DNA from: Clostridia bacterium
GTDB lineage: Bacteria; Bacillota; Clostridia; Peptostreptococcales; JAAYPU01
Assembly: GCA_016278615.1 (NCBI GenBank)
Contig: JADQBM010000029.1
Location: 22,668-86,667 of the forward strand
Direction: 5' to 3'
Length of the DNA stretch: 64,000 nt
This document shows, in pieces, positions 1-61,258 of this stretch; the first letter of the stretch is position 1; the number at the start of each line of letters is the position of its first letter. Below the pieces are notes generated by a model. The model was not told where the DNA came from, did not search any database, and saw only the letters and a list, made by a program, of their open reading frames with translations. The position numbers and the translations under genes are program-made.

Positions 1-461
1 TCCATGACTTTGGCGTGTGAATGGACTTCTTTTTCATTTTTCTTCATTTCTTCCCATGTATGCAATGCCTCATTTAAATCATTTGCCTGGAGATTACCAA
101 AAACATGAGGATGCCTGTCAATCATCTTCTTTGATACATTTTTTATGACATCATCGAGATTAAACCATCCCTGCTCGTCTGCCAAATTTGCATGAAAGAC
201 GACTTGCAACAATAAATCTCCTAATTCTTCTTTCAAAGATCCTATATTCTTCTTATCAATGGCATCTATCACTTCATATGCCTCTTCTATTAAGCATGGT
301 TTTAAGCTTTCATGTGTCTGCTCTTTATCCCATGGACATCCATTCTCTCCTCTCAATTCCTTTAAAATCTCAACAAATTCTTTCATGAACTGCTCCGTGT
401 TTATATTATTATCATTGTTTCCACGGGATATACATTTTTTGTTATTTGCTTCTTGTTTCAT
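1..461 (-). CDS. mazG: MazG-family nucleoside triphosphate pyrophosphohydrolase, N-terminal part (ORF runs off the left edge)
   Basis: Absent from the ORF track because there is no stop in the window. My minus-strand translation from ATG 461-459 gives [46 protein letters not shown], the MazG signature. SD AAGGAAG lies upstream. Synteny matches Bacillus yabN-yabM-spoVT-mfd. Confidence 0.85.
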
Positions 462-492
462 CTAAACCACTTCCTTGTAATTGTATAATAGT

Positions 493-2103: not shown

Positions 2104-2195
2104 GATTGCCCTCCATTTATTTTTAACGGATATTTAATTATATCAAATCAATAACCCTATTATATCAAAAAAAAATAACCACATCATGAATAGTT

Positions 2196-2227
2196 AAAAA
2201 ATCTTTAGGGAGACCTAAAGATTTTTT
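2196..2227 (-). terminator. Bidirectional intrinsic terminator after spoVT
   Basis: AAAAAATCTTTAGG-gaga-CCTAAAGATTTTTT perfect palindrome with A and T tracts on both sides. Confidence 0.75.
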
Positions 2228-2253
2228 ATAAAAAGAGTTTTATGAAACTTTTA

Positions 2254-2805
2254 TTATTGTTCCATCTGCTTTGCCAAGAAACTTGCACCCGTTTCTACTA
2301 CTTTTAATTGAACATCTCCGAGTGTCTTTCCTTGTTCTTTGGATAGAAAAATAATTGAGCCAATTGAATCACCTTGTGAGATAATAGGTACGATAATCTG
2401 AGATTCAAATATTAATTCATCTGAACTTTCAGAAATAACCGGCAGGATTTTTTCTTTATCATTAATAACTTGAACTGTCTTTGATAAGATGTTTTTTTCT
2501 ATTTCCTTACTGATACGCTTATCAATAAGGATTTTTTTTGCTCCACCGGCTACTGCTATTACCTGATCTGTATCCGTAACAATCGTAATATTGCCTAAAA
2601 TATCATAAACAGATTCCGCATATTCATTAGCAAACTCATTTAACTCGCTAATTGGTGAATATTTTTTCAAAATAACCTCCCCGTCTCTATCTGTAAATAT
2701 TTCAAGAGGATCTCCTTCACGGATTCTGAGTGTTCTTCTTATTTCTTTTGGAATAACGACTCTTCCCAAATCATCAATACGTCTCACAATACCTGTTGCT
2801 TTCAT
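2254..2805 (-). CDS. spoVT: Stage V sporulation transcription regulator SpoVT (AbrB-type N-domain plus GAF-like C-domain)
   Basis: MKATGIVRRIDDLGRVVIPKEIRRTLRIREGDPLEIF swapped-hairpin AbrB motif; 183 aa length. Confidence 0.9.
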   Translation of the reverse strand: MKATGIVRRIDDLGRVVIPKEIRRTLRIREGDPLEIFTDRDGEVILKKYSPISELNEFANEYAESVYDILGNITIVTDTDQVIAVAGGAKKILIDKRISKEIEKNILSKTVQVINDKEKILPVISESSDELIFESQIIVPIISQGDSIGSIIFLSKEQGKTLGDVQLKVVETGASFLAKQMEQ

Positions 2806-2925
2806 TTCAAACCTCCTCCGGGAAACTTTCTTTCTCTTTTTAATTTTCCTTAAATATATTATTTTACCAAAGGTCTTTTTTTATGCAGAAGGTTTAAAAT
2901 ATATCTATTAATATGATTTTCTCTT

Positions 2926-3621
2926 TTACCTATTATATTGCTCATAGTTTTTTTCTCTTGATATTATGCTACGTGAATAAGATGTCTCGTATGTATGATG
3001 CTTTTCATAATATTTTTTTAAATTATAAGGCCCGCGATTATATTCTGATAAAATTCTGTTTATATTTTCTTCTCCATATGCCTCTTTTAGTAAATAAATA
3101 TAGGCTGCTCCCAATCCAATATTGTAATCAGGATCAAATATTTTATCGGGATTATATTCAATATTGAGTTCTTCTCCGAAAACACTTACCAACCATTCTT
3201 CTGTAGGAGGAATAATTTGAAGATATCCCCTATCTTGATGTATTCCAACACAATACTGTTCAAAATTGCTCTCCAATTCAATCATTGCGAGAAGTAATGA
3301 AGGCCTAATGTCAAATTTTCGTGCATAAGCAACAAGTACATATGCTGTATCAAAATCAAGGGATGTGTGCGCTTCAATATCTGAAATAAGTTGTATATCT
3401 TCTTGGTAATCCAATTCTACGTATTTTTGAAGTACCAGTTCGGGATTTATATCCTTAACACTTTCATTTATTATTTGTGCTTTCATTTCAGACTCAGATA
3501 TAGCTTCAACTGTCGCAGGCTCACAAGATGACATACTTGTTTCTATTAACAATATGATTAATGAAACAAACATTAGAATGAAAAGTATTTTATAATATTT
3601 GTTTCTTTTTATTATTTCCAA
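2926..3621 (-). CDS. Lytic transglycosylase (SLT) domain protein, membrane anchored
   Basis: N-terminal TM segment; SLT catalytic region LLLAMIELESNF; 231 aa. Confidence 0.7.
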   Translation of the reverse strand: MEIIKRNKYYKILFILMFVSLIILLIETSMSSCEPATVEAISESEMKAQIINESVKDINPELVLQKYVELDYQEDIQLISDIEAHTSLDFDTAYVLVAYARKFDIRPSLLLAMIELESNFEQYCVGIHQDRGYLQIIPPTEEWLVSVFGEELNIEYNPDKIFDPDYNIGLGAAYIYLLKEAYGEENINRILSEYNRGPYNLKKYYEKHHTYETSYSRSIISREKNYEQYNR

Positions 3622-8943: not shown

Positions 8944-8968
8944 TTTCAACACTCCAAACCGTTAACTT

Positions 8969-9164
8969 GAAAGATAATAGATAACAGGTGACAGATAATA
9001 GATGAAAGATAATAGATAATAGTTAAGGTTGGAAATTTGCCATAGCAATTTCCTCATATATTTCTTCAAATTCTTTATAGTATAACTGAAGATTTTGAGT
9101 AACAAAATCATCCACAACTGTTATCTATTATCTGTTATCTATTATCTATCCCTAATCTCTGATC
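8969..9164 (-). repeat. HATH element copy A (heptamer-armed twin-hairpin palindrome), prs|pth spacer
   Basis: Left arm 8969-9028 (AANAGAT heptamers ending AGTTAAGG). Hairpins GGAAATTTGC/AGCAATTTCC (9031-9053) and GATTTTG-agtaa-CAAAATC (9091-9109). Right arm 9113-9164 (TTATCTN heptamers). Strand is orientation relative to copy G. Confidence 0.9.
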
Positions 9165-9174
9165 TTTGTTTTAC

Positions 9175-9199
9175 GGACAACCGCAAGGGTTGTCCCTAC
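9175..9199 (-). repeat. GC-rich TGTAG-hairpin mini-motif embedded in the outer arm of HATH-A
   Basis: The minus strand reads GTAGGGACAACC-cttgc-GGTTGTCC. Arm-like sequence (CTATCTATTGCTATC, carrying the prs stop) resumes on the far side. Confidence 0.7.
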
Positions 9200-13213: not shown

Positions 13214-14614
13214 ATGAATTGCGATCAAGAAGCAAAATATTATCACTGTATTGGAATAGGCGGCATCGGGCTTAGTGCAATAGCGGAAATCTTATTAGCC
13301 AAAGGTTATAAAGTATCGGGTTCCGATATAAAAGAATCTGATATCACTCAATCTTTGGAAAACCATGGCGCTACTATTTACATAGGACATGATGAATCCA
13401 ATATTTCAAATTGTGACACTGTCATTTATACCTCAGCAGTATCAGATGACAATCCTGAATTAATATCAGCTAGAAAAAAGAATATTCCTACTTTATCTCG
13501 TGCTGAAATGCTGGGTCAAATTATGAAGGATTATTCTCACAATATCGCTGTTTCTGGAACTCATGGAAAAACAACAACGACTTCTATGGTCTCGCTAATA
13601 TTGGAAGATGGCCATTTTGATCCTACTATTTTAGTAGGTGGAAAATTAGATAAAATTGGGGGAAATGTTAAAATTGGAAAAGGTCCTTTTTTAATAACGG
13701 AAGCCTGTGAATATATGGATAGTTTCTTAGAACTAAATCCAAAAATAGAAATCATCCTAAATATTGATTCAGATCATTTGGATTACTTTAAAGACATTGA
13801 TCACATCGTAAGTTCTTTCCAGAAATTTGCGAATTTAGTCCCTATAGATGGTTTAATTGTGGCTTATAGTGCCAATGCTTTTGTGAAAAGTATCATCCAT
13901 AATGTATCTTGTAAGACCGTTACTTTTGGTTTTGATGATAGCTGTGACTACTACGCAAACCATATAGAATTCAACTCTGAAGGAATGCCTCTATTTGATG
14001 TATATTATTCTGGCGAAAAATTATGTGCCATACAACTGCTGGTTCCTGGAGAACATAATATTAGCAATTCTCTTGCAGCCATTGCATGTTGCCATACTTT
14101 AGGGGTCTCTATAGACGTAATTGTTAAAACCCTTGAAAGCTTTGAAGGGACTAAAAGAAGATTTGATATCATAGGCATTACGCCAGATCTTTTAAAGGTA
14201 GTGGATGATTATGCACATCATCCAGAAGAAATCAAAGCAACGCTGAGCGCCTGTAAAAATGTCCCCCATAAAAAATTATGGTGTGTCTTCCAGCCCCATA
14301 CTTATACAAGAACAAAAGCTCTTTTCGAGGAATTTACAGATGCTTTTGATTTTGCGGATGGTATTATTATTACAGATATTTATGCCGCCAGAGAAAAAAA
14401 TATCTATAAAATAAAAGCATCAGACTTAATCGATGAAATTAAAAAGAAACATCCTAATAAAAAAGATATTTATTATATCTCAGATTTCGAAGATATCGCA
14501 GATTTTATAATAGAAAAAACCAACCCAAAAGATCTTGTCATAACCATGGGTGCTGGGGATGTTTATAAGGTAGCAGAGCGGATTATGGAGAAGACGAAAA
14601 CAACCGAGAACTGA
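13214..14614 (+). CDS. murC: UDP-N-acetylmuramate--L-alanine ligase
   Basis: GIGGIGLSAIAE Rossmann motif and P-loop GTHGKTTTTSM, with Mur ligase middle and C-terminal domains. The last codons and stop lie in the outer heptamers of HATH-B. Confidence 0.95.
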   Translation: MNCDQEAKYYHCIGIGGIGLSAIAEILLAKGYKVSGSDIKESDITQSLENHGATIYIGHDESNISNCDTVIYTSAVSDDNPELISARKKNIPTLSRAEMLGQIMKDYSHNIAVSGTHGKTTTTSMVSLILEDGHFDPTILVGGKLDKIGGNVKIGKGPFLITEACEYMDSFLELNPKIEIILNIDSDHLDYFKDIDHIVSSFQKFANLVPIDGLIVAYSANAFVKSIIHNVSCKTVTFGFDDSCDYYANHIEFNSEGMPLFDVYYSGEKLCAIQLLVPGEHNISNSLAAIACCHTLGVSIDVIVKTLESFEGTKRRFDIIGITPDLLKVVDDYAHHPEEIKATLSACKNVPHKKLWCVFQPHTYTRTKALFEEFTDAFDFADGIIITDIYAAREKNIYKIKASDLIDEIKKKHPNKKDIYYISDFEDIADFIIEKTNPKDLVITMGAGDVYKVAERIMEKTKTTEN

Positions 14615-14786
14615 GAACTGGAAACTTAAAACTGAGAGATAATAGATAAGAGATAATAGATAACAGTTAAGGAAGGCTTTTGCGTAGAATACGCAAAAGC
14701 CCTCTTTTTTATCTGATGAAAGTTTTGTTATACAAAACTATCCTCAACTCTTATCTATTATCTGTTATCTTTTATCTCTCACTTAT
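14606..14786 (-). repeat. HATH element copy B, murC|amidohydrolase convergent spacer
   Basis: Ten in-phase heptamers at 14606-14672, starting inside the murC 3' end. Hairpins GGCTTTTGCGTA-gaa-TACGCAAAAGCC (14675-14701) and AGTTTTG-ttata-CAAAACT (14721-14739). Right arm 14740-14786. Confidence 0.9.
14675..14710 (+). terminator. murC terminator formed by the first mini-hairpin of HATH-B
   Basis: 12-bp perfect stem GGCTTTTGCGTA/TACGCAAAAGCC followed by CTCTTTTTT. Confidence 0.75.
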
Positions 14787-14795
14787 GCCTTTTAT

Positions 14796-15950
14796 TTATA
14801 TCTTTTGACGGTAGACGATCTTCCCATCTATCAGGGTCATTTTAACTCTGCTATCGAGTTCAAAAGGGTGTTTATCCCATATGACGATGTCTGCGTCTTT
14901 GCCTTCTTTGAGGCTTCCTATTTTGTCGTCTACTCCTAATATTTCAGCAGGATAGAGGGTAATTGCTTTTAATGCCTCATCTCTATCTAAACCTGCTTTA
15001 ACGGCAAGTGCCGCGCATAAGGATAAGTATTGAATGGGGATAACACCATGGTCTGTCATAATGGCAATCTTAATCCCTGCTTTATTCAATATTCCCGGCG
15101 TATCAAAGGTCAGATTTCTAAGTTCAACTTTACTTCTTTCAGAAAGGGTGGGACCAATAATGGCAGGATACCCCTCTTCTTTTAAATATTCCACAATAAG
15201 ATGTCCTTCTGTGCAATGATCCAAAGTCATTCTTAAGTCAAACTCTTTTGCAATGCGAATCGCTGTAAAAATATCATCCGCCCTATGCACATGTGCCTTC
15301 ATGGGTATTTCCTTTTTTAACAAAGGAATTAACACTTCATATTGCATGTCGTAGTCTGGATGCTTTTCTTCATCATCCAATTCTTTTTTCCTAAGGTACT
15401 CTTTTGCTTCTAGAAGGGTTTCTCTGAGTATTGCTGCCGTCGCCATCCTTGTTAAAGGTGTTTTATGTTGATCTCCATAGACCCTTTTGGGGTTCTCGCC
15501 AAAAGCACACTTTATTGCTGCAGGCTCCATAACCACCATATCATCTATTCTTTTACCAAAGGTTTTAATAACAGCAAATTGCCCTCCAATAACATTTGCA
15601 CTTCCAGGACCTGTAGCTGTAGCTGTAACACCTGCTTGATATGCTTCTTCAAAAGCTCGGTCCATTGGATTTATAGCATCTATTGCTCTAAGGTGTGGTG
15701 TCACCGGGTCTGTCGATTCGTTACCGTCTGCACCCTCAATATCAATTCCATCTTCCCACATGCCCACGTGACAGTGGGCATCAATGAATCCTGGCATCAC
15801 AATGCACCCTTCTGCATCAATTATCTCTCCTTCATTGACATGTATCTCAGTGGCGATTTCTTTGATTTTTCCATCTTCTATTAAAATACACCCTTTTTCA
15901 AGGTTCTTTCCCTCCATGGGAAATATGGCAGCATTTTTTATAAGAATCAT
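14796..15950 (-). CDS. Metal-dependent amidohydrolase family protein
   Basis: Amidohydrolase HxH motif GFIDAHCHVGM; 384 aa; substrate not assignable. Confidence 0.7.
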   Translation of the reverse strand: MILIKNAAIFPMEGKNLEKGCILIEDGKIKEIATEIHVNEGEIIDAEGCIVMPGFIDAHCHVGMWEDGIDIEGADGNESTDPVTPHLRAIDAINPMDRAFEEAYQAGVTATATGPGSANVIGGQFAVIKTFGKRIDDMVVMEPAAIKCAFGENPKRVYGDQHKTPLTRMATAAILRETLLEAKEYLRKKELDDEEKHPDYDMQYEVLIPLLKKEIPMKAHVHRADDIFTAIRIAKEFDLRMTLDHCTEGHLIVEYLKEEGYPAIIGPTLSERSKVELRNLTFDTPGILNKAGIKIAIMTDHGVIPIQYLSLCAALAVKAGLDRDEALKAITLYPAEILGVDDKIGSLKEGKDADIVIWDKHPFELDSRVKMTLIDGKIVYRQKI

Positions 15951-15970: not shown

Positions 15971-16294
15971 TAAGGATATAAGATAAGAGATAATAGATAA
16001 TAGATAATAATTATGGATGATTTTGTTTCACAAAATCTAGATTGTCTCATAATCTGTCCTGAATTATTACCAAGATTTAATCTTTAGTATCAATAAAAAT
16101 GAAGATTCTGGAACAAAATCCACCTCAACTCTTGAAGCCCTAGCTCAAATCTTCGATTTGATGTGCAGGTGTCATACAAGTGGAACTTTCTAATCTATGA
16201 TTAGTTAAAGTTGCCATTCGCTCTGTGGAAACTCTCCAATCTTTGATTGGTAAGAGTTTTTCAGTTATCTGTTATCTATTATCTATCTCTAACC
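15971..16294 (+). repeat. HATH element copy C (long variant with nested module), HAD|amidohydrolase spacer
   Basis: Left arm 15971-16016. GATTTTG-tttca-CAAAATC (16018-16036). Second degenerate GATTCTG-gaa-CAAAATC (16104-16120). Nested module 16131-16263. Right arm 16264-16294. Confidence 0.85.
16131..16263 (+). repeat. Nested hairpin module (long form) inside HATH-C
   Basis: CTTGAAGCCCTAGCTCAAATCttcGATTTGA..CATACAA, then two related hairpins (AACTTTCTAATCtatGATTAGTTAAAGTT and AAACTCTCCAATCtttGATTGGTAAGAGTTT), ending GTTTTTCAG. It sits between the junction and the right arm. Confidence 0.8.
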
Positions 16295-24403: not shown

Positions 24404-24445
24404 AGCGCACTCCTGCATCAAATAATGGATTTATTATTTTATATG

Positions 24446-24466
24446 GCGGGAGACCCGCCCCTACAA
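24446..24466 (-). repeat. GC-rich TGTAG-hairpin mini-motif next to HATH-D
   Basis: The minus strand reads TGTAGGGGCGGG-tct-CCCGCC. Confidence 0.7.
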
Positions 24467-24490
24467 ATACTTTTCAGATGACATAATGAG

Positions 24491-24632
24491 AATTTTGTGT
24501 AACAAAATATCCTTAATTATTGAAGACCTAACTCAAATCTATGATTTGAAATGTAGGTCTCATACAGAAACTCTTCAATCTTTGATTGGCTAAGAGTTTT
24601 TCAGTTAATTGTTAATTCTTAATTCTTCATTG
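24491..24632 (-). repeat. HATH element copy D (partial: one hairpin, nested module, TTAATTN arm; no left arm), ahcY|mtaD spacer
   Basis: ATTTTG-tgtaa-CAAAAT (24492-24508). Junction CCTTAATTA. Module 24520-24603. Four TTAATTN heptamers at 24605-24632, ending 8 nt from the ahcY stop. Confidence 0.75.
24520..24603 (+). repeat. Nested hairpin module (short form) inside HATH-D
   Basis: TTGAAGACCTAACTCAAATCtatGATTTGAAATGTAGGTCTCATACAG, then AAACTCTTCAATCtttGATTGGCTAAGAGTTTTTCAG. The ends are colinear with the C module, and one hairpin unit is missing. Confidence 0.8.
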
Positions 24633-28283: not shown

Positions 28284-28790
28284 GGAAATCGAAATTTAAG
28301 TTTAAGCTTGAGTTAAGTAGCTTTATGTTTATTTTAATCATTTTTTTCTGTTTCATTGATTATTTTTTGAAAAATATATAAACTAAGTGATGTGATAAAA
28401 AATGGAAATTGAAGTTTAAGTGTAAGTTTAAGTAAAAATGTGGAAGCTTAAGTGTAAGTTCAAGTGAAAAGTGGAAGTATAAGTGTAAGTCATGTAGGGG
28501 CTGGTCCTGTGCCTGCCCGAAGTAAGTAGGAGTGAAAGTGAAAGTTTAAGTTTAAGTATAAGCGAAAAGTTTGTAGGGGCTGGTTCCTGTGCCTGCCCGA
28601 AGTAAGTAGGAATGGTGGAAGTGTAAGTGTAAGTAAAAGTGGAAGTTTGAGTTTGTAGGGGGCTGGTCCTGTGCCTGCCCGACAAAGAGAAGCTGGAGTC
28701 TAAGTTTATGTGGAAATATAAGTATAAGCGGATTTACACTTAACACTACAACTCTAAGTGTTGTTCAACTATACTTATACTTCATAATAT
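28284..28790. repeat. AAGTNN-hexamer repeat region with three ~80-nt tandem units and a terminal mini-palindrome (HATH-related variant J)
   Basis: Two tracts both start GGAAAT(C/T)GAA(A/G)TTTAAGT (28284, 28404). Three units of hexamer tract plus a 38-39-nt GC motif start at 28493, 28572 and 28654. Terminal inverted arms GAAATATAAGTATAAG (28713-28728) and CTATACTTATACTTC (28769-28783) surround the hairpin ACACTTA/TAAGTGT. Confidence 0.85.
28493..28682 (+). repeat. Three copies of the GC-rich TGTAG-hairpin motif in region J
   Basis: TGTAGGGGCTGGTCCTGTGCCTGCCCGAAGTAAGTAGG at 28493-28530 and 28572-28610 (one extra T); truncated copy at 28654-28682. Stem GGGC(T)GG/CC(T)GCCC. Confidence 0.85.
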
Positions 28791-34600: not shown

Positions 34601-34738
34601 TAGATAACAGATAATAGATAACAGTTAAGGTGAGTTTTGCTATGCAAAACTTAATCTTAATTTATAATAGATGAAATTTTGCTCATGCAAAATATTCCTA
34701 AACTATTATCTGTTATCTGTTATCTATTATCTTTATGG
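34601..34738 (-). repeat. HATH element copy E, fabZ|pgm spacer
   Basis: Left arm 34601-34630. AGTTTTGC-tat-GCAAAACT (34633-34651). ATTTTGC-tcat-GCAAAAT (34676-34693). Right arm 34705-34738, ending 3 nt from the fabZ stop. Confidence 0.9.
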
Positions 34739-37669: not shown

Positions 37670-37695
37670 AATACTTAGTTTAATAGTCCATTGGA

Positions 37696-37866
37696 AAACA
37701 ACGCGAGATTATACATGATTAGGTATAAGCCGAAGCGGAAATCATAAGGAAGGTCATGTCCTTGTGAGAAACTGACAGGCAAAAGAAACGTTGTTTGATG
37801 GAACTCTGGAGATACTGTATATAAACAGAGCCAACGAGGAAATAACCAACAGGCAAAAAGACAGAG
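37696..37866 (+). promoter_or_regulatory. Tandem glycine riboswitch (two aptamers)
   Basis: Aptamer 1: P1 AAACAACG (37696-37703) pairs with CGTTGTTT (37789-37796); internal GCCGAAGCGGAAA; a 9-bp P3b hairpin; CTGACAGGCAAAAGAAA. Aptamer 2: ACTCTGGAGA..GCCAACGAGGAAA..CAACAGGCAAAAAGACAGAG, with P1 CTCTG/CAGAG (37804-37808/37862-37866). These match the glycine-aptamer signatures CUCUGGAGAG, CACCGAAGGGGCAA and CUCAGGCAAAAGGACAG. Confidence 0.8.
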
Positions 37867-37909
37867 GAGTATAATGACGCTTTTATTAGCGTTGCTATAT
37901 TCTTTTTTT
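37866..37909 (+). terminator. Expression-platform intrinsic terminator of the glycine riboswitch
   Basis: GGAGTATA-atg-ACGC [ttttatta] GCGT-tgc-TATATTCT followed by TTTTTT. Its 5' strand starts at the last base of aptamer-2 P1. Confidence 0.6.
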
Positions 37910-37992
37910 ATTTGTTTAAAACTTAATGGTGAAAACCCATTAAATTTTAATAACATTTTGATTTTTAAAAAAAATAAATCGGAGGTATTTGT

Positions 37993-39330
37993 ATGAAAAT
38001 GTTATTAGTTGGAGCTGGTGGTGTTGGTGAATCTATACTTAAAATATTAAAGGTTCGAGATCCAAATGGCTCATGGCTGAAAAAAGTTATTGTTTCAGAC
38101 TATGATTTAAAACGTGCAGAAGAAGTTGTCAATCACTTAGGAGAAGATTCCAGATTCATTGCAGAAAAAGTCAATGCAAAAGATATTAATGCAATCATTG
38201 ATCTCATAAAAAAACATGAATGTGACTTCGTTATGGATGCAGCTGCACCTTTCGTTTCCAATAATATCTTTGATGCTGCTTTTTTAGGAAATGCGAATTA
38301 TGCTAATATGGGAACTTGGTCGGTCCCTTTAGAAAAGCCAAAGTACGGTTATGGTCTTGAAAACAACTTTAGTGAATCTATGGCAGCATATAATTTCGAC
38401 CAGCATGAAGAGTGGCAAAAAAAAGGTATTATGGCTTGTATTTGCTTAGGCATTGATCCCGGAGTCGTGGATGTATTTGGAAGATTTGCGGCAGAGTATC
38501 TTTTTGATGAAATCCACGAAATCCATGTAAAGGACGGCGGAAATCTTCGAATTCCAGGAACTGGTGATTATGATATTGCCTTTGGTTTTAATGTTTGGAC
38601 CGTTTTAGATGAGGTTTTAAATCCTAATGTGGAATGGAGTAAAGATAAAGGCTTCTTCATAGAACCTGCTTTCGCAGGACAAGAAACGTTCCAACTACCT
38701 GTAAGTGTTGGTTCAAATACAATGGTAAAGGTTGAACATGAAGAAACTGTTCTTATGCCTCGGTTCTTACAAAAATATGGTCTGAAGAAATGTAGCTTTA
38801 AAATTAGTCTAGATGATAGCTTGGTTAATGCACTTAAAGTCATTGATGGTTTAGGACTCCGAAGTCTTGAAGATGTAGATGTGGGGGGTGTAAAAGTTAG
38901 ACCAAGAGATGTTGTTGCTGCAGTTGCACCACAACCTAAGGATCTGGGCAGTGAAATGATAGGGAAAATGGTAGTAGGCATACATTGTATTGGAATTAAA
39001 AATGGCATGAAGCGTGAAATCTTTATGTATCAGCCTTTTGATAATCAAGAATCCATGGAAAAGTGGGGCATGCAAGCAGTGGTTGCTCAAACTGGTTTTG
39101 GTGCTGCCATTGGAATCGAAATGATTGGAAGAGACTTCTGGAAAGATGCGGGTGTATACAGTCCCGAGTACTTCAATCCCATCCCCTACCTTGAAATTAT
39201 GGATGAGTCCGATTTTGAATACGGCATCGTTGAAATGGATTCAGAATATAAAGCAAAACAAGATAAAGAAACAATGGCAGAAATATTTGAGAAAGCAAAA
39301 ATGAAAAACGTAATGAACAATGAAAAATGA
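37993..39330 (+). CDS. Saccharopine dehydrogenase-family NAD(P)-binding oxidoreductase
   Basis: N-terminal Rossmann motif MLLVGAGGVGESI; 445 aa with family-typical length and layout. Preceded by a glycine riboswitch. The last codons lie in the HATH-F arm. Confidence 0.75.
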   Translation: MKMLLVGAGGVGESILKILKVRDPNGSWLKKVIVSDYDLKRAEEVVNHLGEDSRFIAEKVNAKDINAIIDLIKKHECDFVMDAAAPFVSNNIFDAAFLGNANYANMGTWSVPLEKPKYGYGLENNFSESMAAYNFDQHEEWQKKGIMACICLGIDPGVVDVFGRFAAEYLFDEIHEIHVKDGGNLRIPGTGDYDIAFGFNVWTVLDEVLNPNVEWSKDKGFFIEPAFAGQETFQLPVSVGSNTMVKVEHEETVLMPRFLQKYGLKKCSFKISLDDSLVNALKVIDGLGLRSLEDVDVGGVKVRPRDVVAAVAPQPKDLGSEMIGKMVVGIHCIGIKNGMKREIFMYQPFDNQESMEKWGMQAVVAQTGFGAAIGIEMIGRDFWKDAGVYSPEYFNPIPYLEIMDESDFEYGIVEMDSEYKAKQDKETMAEIFEKAKMKNVMNNEK

Positions 39331-39507
39331 ATAATGAACAGTGAGTAATGAATAATGAACAATGAATAATGAATAATGGAGGTTGGTTTTGCTTTTAGCA
39401 AAACCTTCTTTTATAAATGCAAGCTTTTGGAACAAAAGCCTCCATAATTATTCATTATTCATTATTCATTATTCATTGTTCATTGTTAATTGTTCATTGT
39501 TAATATT
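39310..39507 (-). repeat. HATH element copy F (ANAATGA/TCATTNT arm flavour), saccharopine-DH|lrgB convergent spacer
   Basis: Ten in-phase ANAATGA heptamers at 39310-39379, including the CDS stop TGA at 39328-39330. GGTTTTGC-tttta-GCAAAACC (39385-39405). GCTTTTG-gaa-CAAAAGC (39423-39439). Nine in-phase TCATTNT-type heptamers at 39445-39507. Confidence 0.9.
39385..39414 (+). terminator. Terminator of the saccharopine-DH-family gene formed by a HATH-F mini-hairpin
   Basis: GGTTTTGC-tttta-GCAAAACC followed by TTCTTTTAT. Confidence 0.6.
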
Positions 39508-39531
39508 TTTTACAGAAAAATATTAACAATG
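39495..39531. repeat. Perfect 16-bp inverted repeat centred on the lrgB stop codon
   Basis: CATTGTTAATATTTTT-tacag-AAAAATATTAACAATG. The left half is the last arm heptamers of HATH-F. The right half encodes the last lrgB codons (FIVNIFL-stop on the minus strand). Confidence 0.9.
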
Positions 39532-40208
39532 AACGGTGCCGCAAGTGCCGTAAAGATCCCTGCAATCCCCATGGCAAGAGAACTCATAGCCCCTTCGATT
39601 TCTCCTTCTTTAAAGGCTCTTGCTGTTCCTACAGCATGACACATACTGCCTAATGCAATTCCTTTTGCAATTTTGTTTTTTATCCCAAGGAACTTGATGA
39701 CTTCTGGGCCAAAACTTCCTCCAAATATTCCGGTAAATACAACCAATGCAATTGTAAGCTCTGGTATACCTCCAATAATTTGGGAGACTTCAATGGCAAT
39801 GGGATTTGTTACACCTTTAGGTACCATGGAAACTATGATTTCCTTATTAGTTCCTAAAATTTTTCCAAAAATAATACAACTTCCCATGGTCACAATACTT
39901 CCACAAACAATTCCCATAACAACTGGCACTACATTTTTCTTGAGAATGTGTATATTTTTATAAAGGGGTACAGCAAGTACAACAGCTGCCGGAGCCAGCA
40001 TAAAATTCAAAAAAGCATTTTGCGCTTTATAGACTTCATAATCAATATTTCCGATTTTTAAAACAACTATAATCAGTATGGTAGCGGTCAAAATCGGCTG
40101 AAGAAAAGAAAATTTGAATTTATTGTATATGAGAATGCCTACCCAAAACCCACTTAAAGTAAGCAACACTCCGAAAACGGGTATGTTCACCAATATATCA
40201 ATCATCAT
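39510..40208 (-). CDS. lrgB: LrgB-family (CidB/LrgB) membrane protein
   Basis: 232 aa polytopic protein that overlaps the upstream lrgA-like ORF by 11 nt. Confidence 0.85.
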   Translation of the reverse strand: MMIDILVNIPVFGVLLTLSGFWVGILIYNKFKFSFLQPILTATILIIVVLKIGNIDYEVYKAQNAFLNFMLAPAAVVLAVPLYKNIHILKKNVVPVVMGIVCGSIVTMGSCIIFGKILGTNKEIIVSMVPKGVTNPIAIEVSQIIGGIPELTIALVVFTGIFGGSFGPEVIKFLGIKNKIAKGIALGSMCHAVGTARAFKEGEIEGAMSSLAMGIAGIFTALAAPFIVNIFL

Positions 40209-48107: not shown

Positions 48108-48300
48108 CAGATAAAAGATAATGAAAAGAAAAAAGAGATAAGAGATAACAGATAATAGATAACAGTTATGGAGGATTTTGATTCTCAAAATCTTCATTTT
48201 ATTTTAATAGAATTGCTAGTTTTGCCTAAGCAAAACTTACCTTAACTATTATCTGTTATCTGTTATCTCTTATCTTTCTTTAACCTATTATCTCTTATCT
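48108..48300 (+). repeat. HATH element copy G (reference orientation), hydA|trmB convergent spacer
   Basis: Left arm 48108-48171. GATTTTG-attct-CAAAATC (48174-48192). AGTTTTGC-ctaa-GCAAAACT (48218-48237). ACCTTAACT junction. Right arm to 48300, containing the trmB stop codon. Confidence 0.9.
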
Positions 48301-48939
48301 TTCGTATTCAAGCGTTGCTTTGCAATAGTTTATTTTCATTCCCCTACGCGAAAATTTTTGTTCGTATTCTGTCATTACATTATCCATAAGTATGCTATGA
48401 AGGTCATTGGTAACGTCTTGCACTGTAAAACCGCAGAGTTCGAATTCTTTTAAAGAAAAATCAAACAAATCCTTGTTATCTGTCTTAAATTCAATAATTC
48501 CTTCAGGCTTTAGTATCCGTTTATAGGATTCAAGAAAGTTCTTATGTGTCAAGCGTCGCTTAGCATGTCGTATTTTGGGCCACGGGTCACTAAAATTGAG
48601 GTAAATCTTATTGATTTCATTTTCCCCAATATATTCGCATATTACATCTGCAAATCTCCATGCACACTTTACATTATTAAGCTCACTTTTCTCAATTTTT
48701 TCAAGTGCTCTCAACAAGACAGTACCAATTGGCTCAATGGCAATATAGTTGGTGTCTGGGTTCATCTCTGCCAAAGACGTGATAAATCTCCCTTTTCCGC
48801 ATCCTATCTCTATATGGATTTCATTTTCATTCTTAAAAAATTGATTCCATTTCCCTTTATGATCTTCTGGTTTTATTGCAAGAATTTGTGAGTAACTCAT
48901 TACTTTTTCTTTTTCATTTTTAACACGTCTCTGTCGCAT
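48295..48939 (-). CDS. trmB: tRNA (guanine-N7)-methyltransferase
   Basis: EIGCGKGRF SAM motif and DPWPK motif. ATG 48939 is preferred (the track TTG lies inside the GGAGGA SD). The stop codon lies inside the HATH-G arm. Confidence 0.9.
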   Translation of the reverse strand: MRQRRVKNEKEKVMSYSQILAIKPEDHKGKWNQFFKNENEIHIEIGCGKGRFITSLAEMNPDTNYIAIEPIGTVLLRALEKIEKSELNNVKCAWRFADVICEYIGENEINKIYLNFSDPWPKIRHAKRRLTHKNFLESYKRILKPEGIIEFKTDNKDLFDFSLKEFELCGFTVQDVTNDLHSILMDNVMTEYEQKFSRRGMKINYCKATLEYER

Positions 48940-48950
48940 TGTATCCTCCA

Positions 48951-49126
48951 AGAATTAGAGATGTGAGATAATAGATGAAAGATAATAGTTAATAGTTAAG
49001 GTGAGTTTTGCTTAGGCAAAACTACAATTTGAATAAAATATAATGGAGATTTTGAGTATCAAAATCATCCTAAACTATTATCTGTTATCTCTTATCTGTT
49101 ATCTGTTATCCATTTATCTTACTAAG
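48951..49126 (-). repeat. HATH element copy H, nrdG|trmB spacer; close inverted copy of G
   Basis: Left arm 48951-49001. AGTTTTGC-ttag-GCAAAACT (49004-49023). GATTTTG-agtat-CAAAATC (49048-49066). Right arm 49077-49126. The reverse complement aligns with G through arms and core. Confidence 0.9.
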
Positions 49127-52772: not shown

Positions 52773-52901
52773 TTAGATAATAGATAAATAGATAATAGTT
52801 GTGGTAGGATTTTGTTGCACAAAATCTTCATTATAAGATGAAAGTTTTGCGTGCAAAACTATCCGTAACTGTTATCTCTTATCTATTATCTCTTATCTTT
52901 G
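52773..52901 (+). repeat. HATH element copy I, DUF4015-like|L,D-transpeptidase spacer
   Basis: Left arm 52773-52804. GATTTTG-ttgca-CAAAATC (52808-52826). AGTTTTGC-gt-GCAAAACT (52843-52860). Right arm 52871-52901. Confidence 0.9.
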
Positions 52902-52930
52902 AAGGGCAATTAACAATTGCCCTTTTAAGC
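52902..52930. terminator. 10-bp perfect hairpin between the DUF4015-like gene stop and HATH-I
   Basis: AAGGGCAATT-aac-AATTGCCCTT. The T-tract (TTTAAGC) is on the plus side only, so function for the minus-strand gene is uncertain. Confidence 0.4.
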
Positions 52931-57118: not shown

Positions 57119-60100
57119 ATGATGTGCATGAATTGGAAATATTCTAAATCGATAAGCATGACTCTAATTTTCATGATGGTTTTTTCATTATTAATTACTA
57201 TCAGCTATGGTGAGGACTTAAATCAATCTGTAGATTTAGCCCAAAATGATGGACCACAAAACATCGAAGAAGTAAATATGAGCGATATTAGTAACCATTG
57301 GGGATATGAAGCAATATCCAAATGGGTGGATAAAAATCTGATTTCAGGATATCCTGACGGGACATTTAAACCAGACGGCAAAATTACAAGAGCAGAGTTG
57401 TTAACTTTAATAAATAGACTATATGGGTTTTATGAAACATCAGATAAAAACTATAGTGATGTAGCTGAGGATGATTGGTACTATGATGAAGTAAGCATTG
57501 CGAAGAAAAATATGTATTTAGATTGGTACAAAGAAAAAGCGTTTTATCCCAATAAAAAAATCACTAGACAAGAAGCATGTGCAATCTTATCAGCTATAAA
57601 CAACTTGGATTTATTGCAGGAATCAGCATCTATGCAGGCTTATTCAGATTATGCTAGCATTCCGGAGTGGAGCAGAGAATATATAGATGCAGTTGTTAGT
57701 AAAGGATACATAAAAGGCTATGAAGATAAAACTTTAAGACCAGAAGGAGAGATCACCAGAGCAGAGGCGGTCACAATGCTGGATAGGGTTATAGGAAAAT
57801 TGATCAATAAAGAAGGAACGTATGGTCCTGAAGAAGGACAACAAATTATTGAGAGTAATCTTACAATAAACAGTAAAGATGTTATATTACAAAACACTAT
57901 CGTAAAAGGAGATTTAATACTTGCTGCTGGAGTCAAAGAAGGAAATGTTGATTTGCAAAATGTCATTGTTGAAGGTAAAACTATTATAAATGGTGGCGGA
58001 GAAAATTCAATTACATTTGACAGCAGTGTTCTAGGAGAAATCATTGTCTTTAAAGTCAATGGAATGATTCGAGTGGTATCAAAAGATAGTGAAATAGGTA
58101 GATCAATACTAAAGTCCGGAGGGAAGTTGGAAGGACAATTTAATGATTCTAAAATTGAGATACTAGGTGATGGGCAAAAAATAGAATTGGATGGAGATTT
58201 TGATGAGATAAAGGTTGAAGCGGAAATAACAATAGAAGTTACAAATGATACAACAGTGAATGTTCTAGAAATCGCAAAAAATGGTAATGGGACACAAATT
58301 GATATTGAGAAGAATGCACAAGTTAGGGAGATTATATTTAATGAATCTGCAATAGTAACAGGTAAAGGAAATGTAATTATTGCTAAGATAAATGCAGATG
58401 AAGTTACTATGGAACAACAAGTTGAACAGAAAATAGTACAAAGTGGAGTTGACGGCAGCGGCGTAAAGGAAAAAACAAAAAGTACTGGTTCTTTTGGTGG
58501 CACTTCTAGGGATAATACCGCACCAACGCCAGGAAATAACGGAAACATTGATATAGAGTGTAGAACACAATCAGCTATACTAAGTTGGGTAGAAGCAACA
58601 GATAATAAAACGGATCAGAATGAATTAGAATATTTAGTTTATTATTCTGAAAATGACAATATAGATACAGTATCCGACATAGAATTAAACGGAGATGCTA
58701 TTGGAACTTATGAGGCTGATATAAGAACAAAATCAGCTATAGGGCTCACTTCTGATACAACATACTATTTCAATGTCATAGTAAAAGACGAATCAGGAAA
58801 TAAAAGCTCATATGAAAGCATTTATGCAAAGACGGATGCACTGGAAGATATGACTACACCAACTGTTAACACATATTTTCCGGTAGCTGATGCAAATGAC
58901 ATAGCAGCAGACAGCGATTTAGCACTAGAATTTAATGAAACTGTAGTAAAAGGAATCGGAAATATTACAGTCAAAAAATCAGATAATACTACAGTAGAAA
59001 CGATCAATGTCACATCAAGTGCTGTGACAATCAATTCTGATGAAGTAACCATTAATCTATCTAGCAATTTAGAATATGGAACAGGGTATTATATCTATAT
59101 TGATGCAGGTGCGTTTTTAGATTTGTCAGGAAATCAATATGCAGGTATAGATGATGCGACAGTCTGGAACTTTACTATAGAAACTGCGCCAGATACAGGT
59201 CCACCAACTGTGAACACATATTTCCCAGCTGATAATGCAAATGACATAGCAACAGACAGCGATTTAGTAGTAGAATTTAATGAAACTGTAGTAAAAGGAA
59301 TCGGAAATATTACAGTCAAAAAATCAGATAATACTACAGTAGAAACGATCAATGTCACATCAAGTGCTGTGACAATCAATTCTGATGAAGTAACCATTAA
59401 TCTATCTAGCAATTTAGAATATGGAACAGGATACTATATCCTTTTAAATGCAGGCGCATTTTTAGATTTATCAGGGAATACGTATGCAGGTATAGACGAT
59501 AGTGTAACATGGAATTTTACAGTTGTATCTTCAAAAGAAATGACAGGGGAAGGAACAAGTGATAATCCGTTTATTATTAACAGCATTGAAGATTTGGTAC
59601 TTGTAGGTAGTGGTGTGAATAGCGATGGCAATGATTATAGCTTTTCAGCATACTATGAATTAGGACGTGACCTAGACTTTGAAGCAACTGGAAGTTATGA
59701 ATCAGAAACTGTAAATACTTCCCTTACTAAAGCAGGTGGTGGCTCAGGCTTCACGCCTATAGGAAGTAATAGTGACGCATTCAATGGTTCTTTTGACGGC
59801 AAAGGTTATGTAATTTCCAACCTATATATGAATACATATAAATCAGGAGAAGTAAACTATGCTGCCTTATTTGGATATGTTATTAATGGGCAAATAAAGA
59901 ACTTGGGAATCGTAGATGCTGATATAACTGCAAGCGCATACAATCATAATCCTATATCAAGTATATTAGCTGGAGCTAATATTGGAGGGACTATCACAAA
60001 TTGCTATGTAACTGGTAATTCTAACGCTGTACGAACAGGTACAAGTGGAAGTAGCTATGCTAGTGGATTGATCGGTTCAAATGATGGTAGCATTACAAAC

Positions 60101-61258
60101 TGTTATGCGGAGGTAGATGTTGAATCTTCAGCTGGAACATATACTGCGTATGCAGGTGGATTGGTGGCTGCTTCTGGGGGCGGTAGCGTTATTAGTGATT
60201 GTTATTCTATGGGCGATGTGACAGTATCAGGTGGAAGCGTTGATGGTGGAGGTATTGCAGCATATAATCACGGTACAATAACACGCTGCTATTCCACTTG
60301 TGATATATCTGCCACAGGAACAGGCGGATTAAGAGTTGGAGGAATAGTTGGATACAATGGCAGTAACAGCATAACAAGTTCTATTGCATATAATAACACA
60401 TTAACAACTTCTACTACTGGAACCAGTTATATTGGCAGAGTTGTTGGAAATAATACAGCGACACTTTCCAATAACTATGCTAAAGAGAATATGATAGGTG
60501 GAGGCGGAACGGCTACCCATGACGACACTGGTGGTGCGGATATCTCGATGACACAATTAAATGAGATTAGTAGTTATGATAATACGGGTACTGCCCCAGA
60601 TCTTAACTGGGATTTTGATACCATATGGCAAATGGGTTTAGACAGACCAATAATTCGAGGTGTGGGAGACGATAATGGCGGATTACCTTTCAATTATTTA
60701 ATCAATGATGATTTTGAGGATGATACAGCAGGTTCTGCCCCTTCTGATTGGACTATAAAATATACACCGGTAACAGTATCTAATACAATTAGTAAAAATG
60801 GTAGTCATTCCCTAAGCCTTGATGGTGTAAATGGGTCAGCAGCAGCTTGCTATAAGCCAATTGATATTTCAGGATTAAACACCCTTATTTTTGAAGCTTT
60901 TCTATACCCGACTTCCGAACAAGAAAATGGGACTATGGAGTTTTCAAATAATTACGAAAACAGGAAATTAAGAGTGACGGTTTTAAATGGAAAAATACAA
61001 TACAGCACAAGCGCCCATGATAATAACAATTTAGTTGAGCTAGCAGATTATACCGTCAATACTTGGTATCATGTAAAAATAGTAACGGACTTAGTAGCAA
61101 AAACTTTTGATGTTTATACTGATGGTATAAAGCGAAATAATGATCCAATATCGCTAATTAATATGTTAACGCCACTAAATGCAGCAGGAATGTCTTCGGG
61201 TAACTCTGGTGGTAGTAACCTAATATACTTCGATGATGTCAAGGTATACGGTTATTAA
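57119..61258 (+). CDS. Giant cell-surface protein: signal peptide, 3 SLH domains, beta-helix region, FN3, 2 tandem Ig-like domains, GLUG-motif repeats, LamG-like C-terminus
   Basis: 1379 aa. SLH motifs (..ISGYPDGTFKPDGKITRAEL.., ..IKGYEDKTLRPEGEITRAEA..). Repeated GLUG-type segments (GGLVAASGGGSVISDCYSMGDV and others). C-terminal concanavalin-like domain. Confidence 0.9.
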   Translation: MMCMNWKYSKSISMTLIFMMVFSLLITISYGEDLNQSVDLAQNDGPQNIEEVNMSDISNHWGYEAISKWVDKNLISGYPDGTFKPDGKITRAELLTLINRLYGFYETSDKNYSDVAEDDWYYDEVSIAKKNMYLDWYKEKAFYPNKKITRQEACAILSAINNLDLLQESASMQAYSDYASIPEWSREYIDAVVSKGYIKGYEDKTLRPEGEITRAEAVTMLDRVIGKLINKEGTYGPEEGQQIIESNLTINSKDVILQNTIVKGDLILAAGVKEGNVDLQNVIVEGKTIINGGGENSITFDSSVLGEIIVFKVNGMIRVVSKDSEIGRSILKSGGKLEGQFNDSKIEILGDGQKIELDGDFDEIKVEAEITIEVTNDTTVNVLEIAKNGNGTQIDIEKNAQVREIIFNESAIVTGKGNVIIAKINADEVTMEQQVEQKIVQSGVDGSGVKEKTKSTGSFGGTSRDNTAPTPGNNGNIDIECRTQSAILSWVEATDNKTDQNELEYLVYYSENDNIDTVSDIELNGDAIGTYEADIRTKSAIGLTSDTTYYFNVIVKDESGNKSSYESIYAKTDALEDMTTPTVNTYFPVADANDIAADSDLALEFNETVVKGIGNITVKKSDNTTVETINVTSSAVTINSDEVTINLSSNLEYGTGYYIYIDAGAFLDLSGNQYAGIDDATVWNFTIETAPDTGPPTVNTYFPADNANDIATDSDLVVEFNETVVKGIGNITVKKSDNTTVETINVTSSAVTINSDEVTINLSSNLEYGTGYYILLNAGAFLDLSGNTYAGIDDSVTWNFTVVSSKEMTGEGTSDNPFIINSIEDLVLVGSGVNSDGNDYSFSAYYELGRDLDFEATGSYESETVNTSLTKAGGGSGFTPIGSNSDAFNGSFDGKGYVISNLYMNTYKSGEVNYAALFGYVINGQIKNLGIVDADITASAYNHNPISSILAGANIGGTITNCYVTGNSNAVRTGTSGSSYASGLIGSNDGSITNCYAEVDVESSAGTYTAYAGGLVAASGGGSVISDCYSMGDVTVSGGSVDGGGIAAYNHGTITRCYSTCDISATGTGGLRVGGIVGYNGSNSITSSIAYNNTLTTSTTGTSYIGRVVGNNTATLSNNYAKENMIGGGGTATHDDTGGADISMTQLNEISSYDNTGTAPDLNWDFDTIWQMGLDRPIIRGVGDDNGGLPFNYLINDDFEDDTAGSAPSDWTIKYTPVTVSNTISKNGSHSLSLDGVNGSAAACYKPIDISGLNTLIFEAFLYPTSEQENGTMEFSNNYENRKLRVTVLNGKIQYSTSAHDNNNLVELADYTVNTWYHVKIVTDLVAKTFDVYTDGIKRNNDPISLINMLTPLNAAGMSSGNSGGSNLIYFDDVKVYGY
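58857..59525 (+). repeat. In-frame 345-nt tandem duplication inside the SLH surface-protein gene (two Ig-like domains)
   Basis: Copy 1 is 58857-59180 and copy 2 is 59202-59525. 58926-59085 is identical base-for-base to 59271-59430 (160 nt). Confidence 0.95.

Follow-up and report, generated by a model that had tools for sequence, protein, structure and literature searches.

The intergenic space between a saccharopine-dehydrogenase-like gene and the convergent lrgB gene of a Clostridia bacterium is entirely occupied by an element, here called F (39300-39510), in which inverted arrays of heptamers bracket a core of two hairpins. F lies in a 64,000-nucleotide stretch of contig JADQBM010000029.1 (the window, to which all coordinates refer unless a contig is named), which contains 35.7% G+C and whose best named protein matches are to Anaerovoracaceae and their relatives. 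Nine copies of the element family are present in the window. We favour, with a probability of roughly 55%, the reading that F belongs to a palindromic repeat dispersed at gene ends, comparable to REPINs (hairpin-forming doublets of repetitive extragenic palindromic, or REP, sequences) and to MITEs (miniature inverted-repeat transposable elements), and that its microsatellite arms turn over by slippage and by template switching between inverted repeats.

Tandem Repeats Finder (TRF) reported the left array of F with a period of 7 (39311-39378, 9.7 copies, unit TAATGAA) and also of 21 (39300-39378), and the right array with periods of 7 (39447-39498, 7.4 copies, unit ATTATTC) and 14 (39445-39504). 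The arrays are mutually inverted, with 72-nt arms that are 81% complementary, or 58 nt at 88%. The left junction core TAATGGAGG (39374-39382) is complementary to the right junction CCTCCATAATTA, and comparison of the fold of F with shuffled sequences gave z = -14.8 and -11.9 on the two strands. With curated thresholds the sole Rfam match was a glycine riboswitch and no family matched the element, while permissive thresholds applied to F returned only sub-threshold matches to plant microRNA precursors, which are generic long hairpins. A BLAST search of F against plasmids found no match.

The nine copies comprise eight full elements and one half element, D (Table 1). A preliminary description of this DNA had reported that the arm unit differs by locus and that the junctions of F change in step, and both observations are borne out. 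F carries AATGAAN units (about ten on the left and about nine, inverted, on the right), whereas AGATAAN arms are found at the seven loci other than F and D (41 matches against 0.01 expected); the junctions of F are TAATGGAGG/CCTCCATAATTA, whereas those of most other copies are AGTTAAGG..CCTTAACT. The same description had correctly listed the unit pairs of copy B, the TTAATTN-type units of D and the AAGTNN hexamers of a region named J. D is a second window copy of F's unit type: its forward-strand units at 24604-24632 read TTAATTG TTAATTC TTAATTC TTCATTG, its junction ATAATTAAGG and hairpin lie at 24490-24520, and the copy starts 8 nt past the stop of an S-adenosylhomocysteine (AdoHcy) hydrolase gene. 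Runs of four successive AATKAAN units (AATGAAN/AATTAAN) occur seven times in the window, in F and D only, against an expectation of 0.00 (none in 100 shuffles).

Alignment of 20 half-modules from the window and from two contigs of relatives (L003 and L128) revealed a common construction unit: a heptamer run, the junction A-R-TT-R-W-GG, 2-4 nt, a hairpin xTTTTGx...xCAAAAx and a T-rich tail. A full element consists of two such modules facing one another, and both modules of F conform to this profile. At three positions of the hairpin stem both partners of a pair have changed with pairing retained (GC 11 / AU 6; AU 9 / GC 8; CG 9 / UA 4 / AU 2).

Each of the nine window copies lies next to one or more gene stop codons, and no copy has a gene start on both sides. 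B, F and G separate convergent genes; the remaining copies follow the upstream gene of a tandem pair. In three cases a stop codon lies inside an arm, namely that of the saccharopine-dehydrogenase-like open reading frame (ORF), within the third heptamer of the F left arm; that of a Mur-ligase gene, within an AACTGAG unit of B; and that of the gene at 48295-48951, in G. Homologues of the dehydrogenase-like protein share an end of the form ...IFxKAK, followed by unrelated tails. Both arms of the window copies contain stops in 3/3 frames when read inward and in 0-2 when read outward. Taking all loci together, in 52 of 67 inverted heptamer pairs one or both inward-reading arms contain or adjoin the stop of an ORF of at least 100 codons, compared with about 7% per side in the control.

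The hairpins resemble terminators. In a scan with a simple intrinsic-terminator consensus, hairpin 1 of F, E and G matched; the second hairpins carry too few G-C pairs for the scan rule. At F the terminator layout of a stem-loop and T-run past the stop codon is present on each strand, with hairpin 2 followed by TTGCATTTAT on the minus strand. Judging from this layout, the hairpins of F probably serve as terminators, and its arms as translation stops, for the adjoining genes. A ribosome arriving from either side would meet stops in all three frames within 21 nt, and RNA polymerase arriving from either side would meet a terminator-like hairpin. A bidirectional intrinsic terminator consists of an A-rich tract, a hairpin and a T-rich tract between convergent genes and is usable on both strands. 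The F family shares this order between convergent genes but has two hairpins, a 7-nt periodicity in arms 30-70 nt long, a conserved junction motif and a lineage-specific, multi-copy spread. Separately, perfect 9-11-nt hairpins unrelated to the element were observed just outside the arms at 8/129 boundaries (the palindrome at lrgB excluded), compared with 1/123 at 150 nt further out (examples are window 52902-52924, L154 174-199, L074 4409-4431 and L161 432-456); this excess suggests that elements may be located beside pre-existing terminators.

The unit type of F is widely distributed. A genome scan for four AATKAAN units, used as a cross-phylum sample, gave at least 120 matches; those listed belong to Bacteroidota, Cyanobacteria, Clostridia, Beggiatoaceae and others, and several are inverted pairs around hairpins. 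A metagenome scan for the pattern AATGAAN AATKAAN AAT, 2-12 nt, TTTTG, 3-8 nt, CAAAA also gave at least 120 matches. Among the distinct metagenome matches listed, 25/109 have a complementary arm within 200 nt and are full elements, whereas about 70% are half modules or chance matches; a gene-end position was found for 30/85 of the listed matches, against 5% in the control. Among the matches listed, AATKAAN arms with an F-like junction, hairpins and inverted layout adjoin unrelated genes in many genomes and metagenome contigs. One contig (L145) has F's own AATAATGGAGG junction, a Clostridium contig (L074) has the layout of F (...GAATTAATGGG, hairpin, hairpin, CCTTAATTATTCATT...) with a similar junction, GAATTAATGGG, and two others (L132 and L249) have the architecture of F with other junctions. 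The odd heptamer of F thus appears to be a widespread variant and not one generated from the neighbouring genes, contrary to the strongest form of the local origin of arms raised in the preliminary description.

A relative's contig, L003, carries the same convergent gene pair; compared with the window, the dehydrogenase-like protein is 88% and LrgB 90% identical, and third-codon identity is 0.58-0.65. Its intergenic space is likewise filled by an element, and the stop of the dehydrogenase-like gene lies in the first arm unit. The right arms of the two elements align without gaps over nine units of the same total length, and nearly every unit differs in the same way, T-C-ATT-A/G-T in the window against T-A-ATT-C-T in L003 (TTCATTN to TTAATTC). 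The short left arm of L003, built of AGTTAAG/AATTAAG units, matches the switch in its right arm. At this orthologous locus the unit type has changed in both arms, with the number of right-arm units preserved. Arms that are uniform within a species and different between species have the look of concerted evolution of a tandem array. Between window and L003, hairpin 1 is about 79% identical by eye, above the rest of the core.

The preliminary description had also remarked that the arms of F resemble both adjoining coding ends. On the upstream side the likeness arises because the ORF reads into the arm; on the lrgB side it stands, as a perfect 19-nt inverted repeat with the lrgB stop codon (39510-39512) at the boundary of arm and loop. 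LrgB homologues end in P-[FIL]-[IFL]-V/A-x-x-F-[LF], and this C-terminus is ancestral to the family. In two outgroups (L124 and L129) lrgB ends in TTT ATT GTA/GTG GAT ATT and there is no arm copy; in the window it ends in TTC ATT GTT AAT ATT TTT with an identical arm copy (19/19); in L003 it ends in TTA ATC GTT AGT ATT TTT with the arm copy CTTAATCATTAATATTTTT (17/19). The lrgB ends of window and L003 differ at four positions, and at three of these the arm copy of each lineage carries the base that matches its own gene. Given that silent sites are close to saturated, the complementarity of arm and lrgB must be actively maintained, and either selection for a hairpin or templated correction could be the cause.

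These facts bear on the possibility that arms are made locally from their flanks, a gene end being copied in inverted form and amplified by slippage so that the neighbouring coding sequence dictates the unit type. The 19-nt inverted lrgB copy does consist of the outermost arm units; the lrgB end and the arm of L003 (TTA ATC GTT AGT; TTAATTC/TTAATCA) have shifted in step relative to those of the window (TTC ATT GTT AAT; TTCATTG/TTAATTG); and the ancestral lrgB end (TTT ATT GTA GAT ATT) is already heptamer-like. We nonetheless judge such an origin very unlikely. Seven copies with differing, unrelated flanks all carry AGATAAN, AATKAAN arms stand beside unrelated genes in several phyla, and the upstream likeness has the simple cause given above. 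No comparable palindrome between arm and flank was found at 128 other arm boundaries, where the next best cases were 11-nt stems, nearly all of them separate hairpins outside the arm. The F palindrome is thus unique among 129, and the sampled arm boundaries reveal no correlation between arm unit and adjacent flank of the kind that had been proposed. Even at lrgB, with two lineages compared, sequence may have passed either from gene to arm or from arm to gene.

Relatives differ in the presence of the element, as in a dispersed multi-copy family. At the 3' site of lrgB, L124 and L129 have plain, unrelated terminators and no element, L128 has a half element of AGATAAN type, and the window and L003 have full elements. 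No heptamer arrays were found in about 21 kb from relatives with 79% LrgB identity, which points to a recent, lineage-specific expansion of the family. Having multiplied in this lineage to nine copies per 64 kb, with none in the 21 kb of the relatives, the family behaves like a small non-autonomous mobile repeat. One might suppose instead that nothing has moved, and that bidirectional terminators gain A-rich and T-rich heptamer microsatellites in situ, through slippage near replication-stalling hairpins or selection for stops or a longer stem, the resemblance between loci being convergence. Heptamer arrays of many unit types do flank hairpins in several phyla, most of the inverted pairs lie at gene ends (52/67), among the long simple repeats of prokaryotes heptamers are the most frequent (PMC4679880), and neither a transposase nor a target-site duplication was found in the window. 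Convergence is, however, an unlikely source of a junction motif and an xTTTTGx/xCAAAAx hairpin common to 20 half-modules of the lineage, or of the cores of G and H, which are 81% identical in opposite orientation; and both the ordinary terminators of the relatives and the lineage-specific density of copies speak for spread.

A further alternative, already raised in the preliminary description, is that of ordinary MITE subfamilies: an AGATAAN and an AATKAAN family would each have its own fixed terminal repeats and transposase, and arms would match through inheritance of both ends. In agreement with this, AATKAAN elements of F architecture are numerous elsewhere, D and F share the junction AATAATTAWGG, and arms in the window are no more alike within than between elements. 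Fixed ends are nevertheless not what the copies display. A search for terminal inverted repeats of fixed sequence common to all copies found none; the unit differs (AGATAAN, AATGAAN/AATTAAN, AACTGAG), the variable position is unmirrored, the arms are arrays of 3-10 heptamers that vary in unit number and sub-type, and target-site duplications are lacking. The core of F is not an outlier, with identities to other cores of 0.57-0.69 against 0.58-0.81 among the AGATAAN-armed copies. In copy C, AGATAAN arms adjoin the AATAATTATGG junction, which elsewhere goes with the AATKAAN type, and at the L003 locus both arms have changed their unit type with arm length preserved.

Parts are also mixed on the 4.8-kb metagenome contig Ga0123357_10066266 (L205), where four elements within 3 kb (143-3002) have the arm units AATGAAT, AAGAATN, TTAGTAG and TTAGGGG. 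Two of them share a near-identical junction and hairpin (ATGG-TGGAATTGC...GCAATTC) but have different arm units, AAGAATN and TTAGTAG; a third has the related hairpin GAATTTTGC; the fourth shares only the junction TTAGTTATGG and has no recognisable hairpin. The junctions are similar, and three of the four elements share a GGAATTGC-type or related hairpin. We therefore regard separate subfamilies with fixed ends as doubtful. The TTAGGGG unit on this contig has exactly the form of a telomere-type repeat.

Within an element, both arms tend to agree in unit type and sub-type. The preliminary description had stated that they match unit by unit except at the variable position; the shared type is confirmed, and the match of individual units is not. 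The F arms agree at 46/52 positions (0.885), whereas the F left arm set against the right arms of other AATKAAN elements gives a mean of 0.854, and 31% of those comparisons are as good as F's own. The complementarity of the F arms thus reflects a common unit type and not unit-by-unit copies. Among 31 AATKAAN elements, however, the arms share their sub-type, with r = 0.73 at the G/T position and a cosine of 0.81 in the usage of the N base, against 0.45 for re-paired arms; neither value was attained in any permutation. In 17/54 elements the arms agree better than 90% of cross-element pairs, about 5 being expected; the arms of L135 match at 31/31 positions, an aberrant unit included, and those of G are interrupted at equal distance (four units) from the core. 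Successive arrays 5-130 nt apart have inverted-matching units in 69/141 cases, against 27 expected.

Several results weigh against the reading that we favour. In a unit-by-unit mirror test no window copy had arms that matched beyond their common unit type, leaving no visible recent arm-to-arm correction; of the local homogenisation proposed earlier, the concerted change at L003 and at the lrgB end speaks for it and this result against it. The sub-type correlation could reflect a lineage-wide preference in place of coupling within elements, and many neighbouring arrays in other phyla have discordant units (72/141). A target-site duplication was not found: the longest words shared by the outer boundaries of seven copies measure 3-6 nt and have no common length or sequence, although fuzzy boundaries make this a weak test. 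No precise pair of filled and empty sites was found, and a Pfam scan of the gene-sized ORFs of the window detected no transposase or RAYT (REP-associated tyrosine transposase) domain. The F and L003 elements are probably orthologous, yet paralogous cores are at least as alike as theirs (64% over the whole core); because silent sites are nearly saturated, core identity is uninformative on this point. Finally, among 14 elements outside the window with other unit types, the asymmetry of stops found no confirmation (7 inward against 6 outward).

Two other accounts of the arms differ in what they make of these data. In a stronger form of turnover, hairpin-templated synthesis would continually rewrite the arms, sequence would flow between them and into the last codons of the adjoining genes, unit types would arise and be replaced in situ and not by subfamily descent, and the elements would be widespread cross-phylum gene-end cassettes that provide terminators and stops in every frame and are able to overwrite C-termini, such as those of LrgB and the saccharopine-dehydrogenase-like protein. 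We put this forward tentatively, as considerably less probable than not. In the other, heptamer arrays would be binding sites for a protein (a transposase, nucleoid or regulatory protein) or an RNA-binding factor, with the unit type following the specificity of the partner. Regular phasing and inversion at both ends would suit such a role, and phased inverted arrays recall the subterminal repeats of some transposons. A post-transcriptional regulator has, in addition, been proposed for TAACTGA repeats (PMC4679880). Given that several unit types coexist in one genome, even on the 4.8 kb of L205, that the type has changed at the orthologous L003 locus and that the genes of the window encode no candidate protein nearby, binding-site arrays seem extremely unlikely.

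Under the favoured reading of a mobile gene-end repeat, the element would spread as a non-autonomous repeat, replication slippage would alter the number of units and homogenise each array, and template switching or gene conversion between inverted repeats would keep the two arms alike and would have created, or would maintain, the lrgB palindrome. The unit types are linked by single substitutions that keep the stop codon, in the order AGATAAN - AGTTAAN - AATTAAN - AATGAAN. The AGTTAAN units of copy H lie one substitution from AGATAAN and one from AATTAAN; a further change gives AATGAAN, and the stop is kept at every step. Inversion of the spacer would explain the opposite orientation of the G and H cores.

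Among known systems, REPINs and bacterial interspersed mosaic elements (BIMEs) are REP doublets that form hairpins and are mobilised by RAYT tyrosine transposases (PMC3116915, PMC3337134). The F family resembles them in its two short imperfect palindromes, inverted and separated by a short spacer, in its extragenic, multi-copy distribution mostly just past genes, in the capacity of the whole unit to fold into a single long hairpin and in the lack of target-site duplication. It differs in that its hairpins are AT-rich (xTTTTGx/xCAAAAx), are bracketed by variable heptamer arrays and are preceded by A-R-TT-R-W-GG and not by GTAG, the RAYT recognition/cleavage motif; the host belongs to the Bacillota, and a RAYT was not seen in the window. 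Bacterial MITEs include the Correia elements of Neisseria, RUP and BOX of Streptococcus and bcr1 of Bacillus cereus. Like the F family, MITEs are small, non-coding, dispersed and palindromic, often lie at gene ends and can supply terminators or alter gene termini (PMC2229807, PMC3184786). They have fixed terminal inverted repeats and target-site duplications, however, whereas the ends of the F family are variable-number arrays whose unit differs by locus.

The arms themselves belong to a known class of bacterial heptamer repeats, which includes the short tandemly repeated repetitive (STRR) sequences of cyanobacteria and the TAACTGA repeats of Beggiatoaceae, Cyanobacteria and Bacteroidetes (MacGregor 2015, PMC4679880). 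As in that class, the window arms consist of 7-mers repeated head to tail between genes, and in one orientation they give stops in all three frames, a property also reported for TAACTGA repeats (PMC4679880). The repeats of that account are direct, lie mainly a short way upstream of start codons and include a single reported inverted pair (PMC4679880), whereas the arrays of the F family are paired in inverted orientation about hairpins at the 3' ends of genes, with several interchangeable unit types. The outer left arm of copy B (14602-14637) is built of AACTGAG/AACTGGA/AACTTAA units, nearly the TAACTGA repeat; these overlap the stop of the Mur-ligase gene and have no complementary counterpart on the right side. 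Our literature search yielded no account of hairpin pairs enclosed by inverted heptamer arrays, and searching for the literal repeat strings gave nothing bacterial; the combination of such arms with an inverted hairpin pair is thus not matched in the literature found.

Template switching homogenises and extends the arms of inverted repeats and inverts spacers, and at quasi-palindromes it turns imperfect inverted repeats into perfect ones through multi-nucleotide changes (PMC8794818, PMC8604942, PMC13100816, PMC7202029). This would fit the 19/19 palindrome of arm and lrgB, the co-variation in L003 and the occurrence of cores in both orientations. Template switching is a kind of mutation, however, and does not define a family of elements; sequence patterns suggest its action at F.

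Small palindromic repeats such as REPs and MITEs and heptamer microsatellites have so far been treated apart and are here joined in one architecture, the general layout of which was found in scans of Bacillota, Bacteroidota and Cyanobacteria genomes, with cores that differ between phyla. If our reading is true, such cassettes would end translation in any frame and transcription in either direction and could allow genes to be juxtaposed safely, for example a riboswitch-controlled gene beside lrgB. They would also shape protein C-termini and would offer a natural system for the concerted evolution of inverted microsatellites and for template-switch repair. On the practical side, short-read assemblies break at the arms: three independent contigs assembled from short reads of this organism, two from Logan and one from the Joint Genome Institute (JGI), terminate inside the F arms (L001 at 3060, L002 at 11379 and L250 at 1078), and the copy number in metagenome-assembled genomes is therefore probably underestimated. 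No slippage polymorphism was seen in two contigs of Logan SRR24974067 and the JGI contig, which are identical to F where they overlap it.

Table 1. Coordinates of F, its flanking genes and the other copies of the family in the window
Feature	Position	Strand	Description	Basis
F left arm	39300..39379	+	about 10 AATGAAN heptamers; stops in three frames 5'->3'	TRF, sequence, stop-frame count
F left junction TAATGGAGGTT	39374..39384	+	variant of family junction A-R-TT-R-W-GG	20-half-module alignment
F hairpin 1 GGTTTTGC-TTTTA-GCAAAACC, then TTCTTTTAT	39385..39405	+	terminator-like for + strand gene	consensus scan, fold, compensatory pairs
F hairpin 2 GCTTTTG-TTC-CAAAAGC, then TTGCATTTAT	39423..39439	-	terminator-like for lrgB	sequence, fold, half-module alignment
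F right junction CCTCCATAATTA	39439..39450	+	complements left junction	inverted-repeat search
F right arm	39445..39507	+	about 9 TTCATTN/TTAATTN heptamers, the reverse complement of the left-arm unit	TRF, inverted repeats, ungapped L003 alignment
Saccharopine-dehydrogenase-like gene	37993..39330	+	last codons (...MKNVMNNEK*) and stop 39328-39330 encoded by F left arm	ORF, Pfam
lrgB	39510..40208	-	Pfam LrgB profile positions 1-213 of 214; C-terminus P-F-I-V-N-I-F-L	
Secondary palindrome	39492..39534		39492-39510 (outermost arm units and T-run) a perfect 19-nt inverted copy of 39516-39534 (last lrgB codons)	
Copy A	8968..9149		AGATAAN arms; between prs stop and pth start	
Copy B	14602..14806		AGATAAN arms, outer left AACTGAG units; convergent genes, both stop codons in or at arms	
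Copy C	15973..16286		AGATAAN arms, AATAATTATGG junction; 132-nt module X (16133-16264) between core and right arm	
Copy D	24490..24632	-	half element; arm CAATGAA GAATTAA GAATTAA CAATTAA 24605-24632, module X 24521-24604	
Copy E	34601..34736		AGATAAN arms	
Copy G	48108..48300		AGATAAN arms, both interrupted four units from core; stop of gene 48295-48951 is the outermost AGATAA unit	
Copy H	48966..49110		AGATAAN/AGTTAAN arms; core 81% identical to G core, opposite orientation	
Copy I	52774..52898		AGATAAN arms	

F also forms one border of a larger difference between relatives. In L124, L128 and L129 (79-81% LrgB identity) an M23 peptidase gene directly follows lrgB, and two features of the window (together 37688-39330) are absent, namely the glycine riboswitch (RF03166, 144 bits) and, downstream of it, the saccharopine-dehydrogenase-like gene. 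This riboswitch-gene cassette was gained or lost as a block. In L003 a period-7 array with the unit TAAATCT (128-167) lies upstream of the dehydrogenase-like gene, near the position that the riboswitch occupies in the window.

A second small sequence, module X, is inserted inside a heptamer arm of C and of D, and inside one on metagenome contig L239. Read on the minus strand, it consists of CTGAAAAAC, a hairpin CTCTTAsCCAATCAAAGATTGrAGAG, TTTC and a long hairpin TGTATGAsACCT...AGGkCTTCA; it measures 84 nt in D and 132 nt in C, where there is an extra hairpin. It had no match in Rfam. In both window cases the next downstream gene on its strand encodes an amidohydrolase. Module X could be another very small mobile repeat, with heptamer arrays as its target, or a leader RNA that has escaped recognition.

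Region J (28411-28682) lies between divergently transcribed genes, unlike the heptamer elements, and contains GTAG with a G+C-rich hairpin (e.g. GTAGGGGCTGGTCCTGTGCCTGCCC) three times, at 28494, 28573 and 28655, spaced by runs of the AAGTNN hexamer. Single GTAG-plus-hairpin copies stand on the minus strand beside D (24445-24465) and A (about 9175-9199), and others occur on L128, L160, L229, L234 and L238. These repeats have the classical REP layout and are separate from the heptamer family; by analogy, they hint at a RAYT-type system in this Bacillota genome. Elsewhere in the window, a 345-nt tandem duplication (58857-59500; 1.9 copies, 91% identical) was observed within the gene for a 1379-aa S-layer-homology / Big_5 surface protein (57119-61258).

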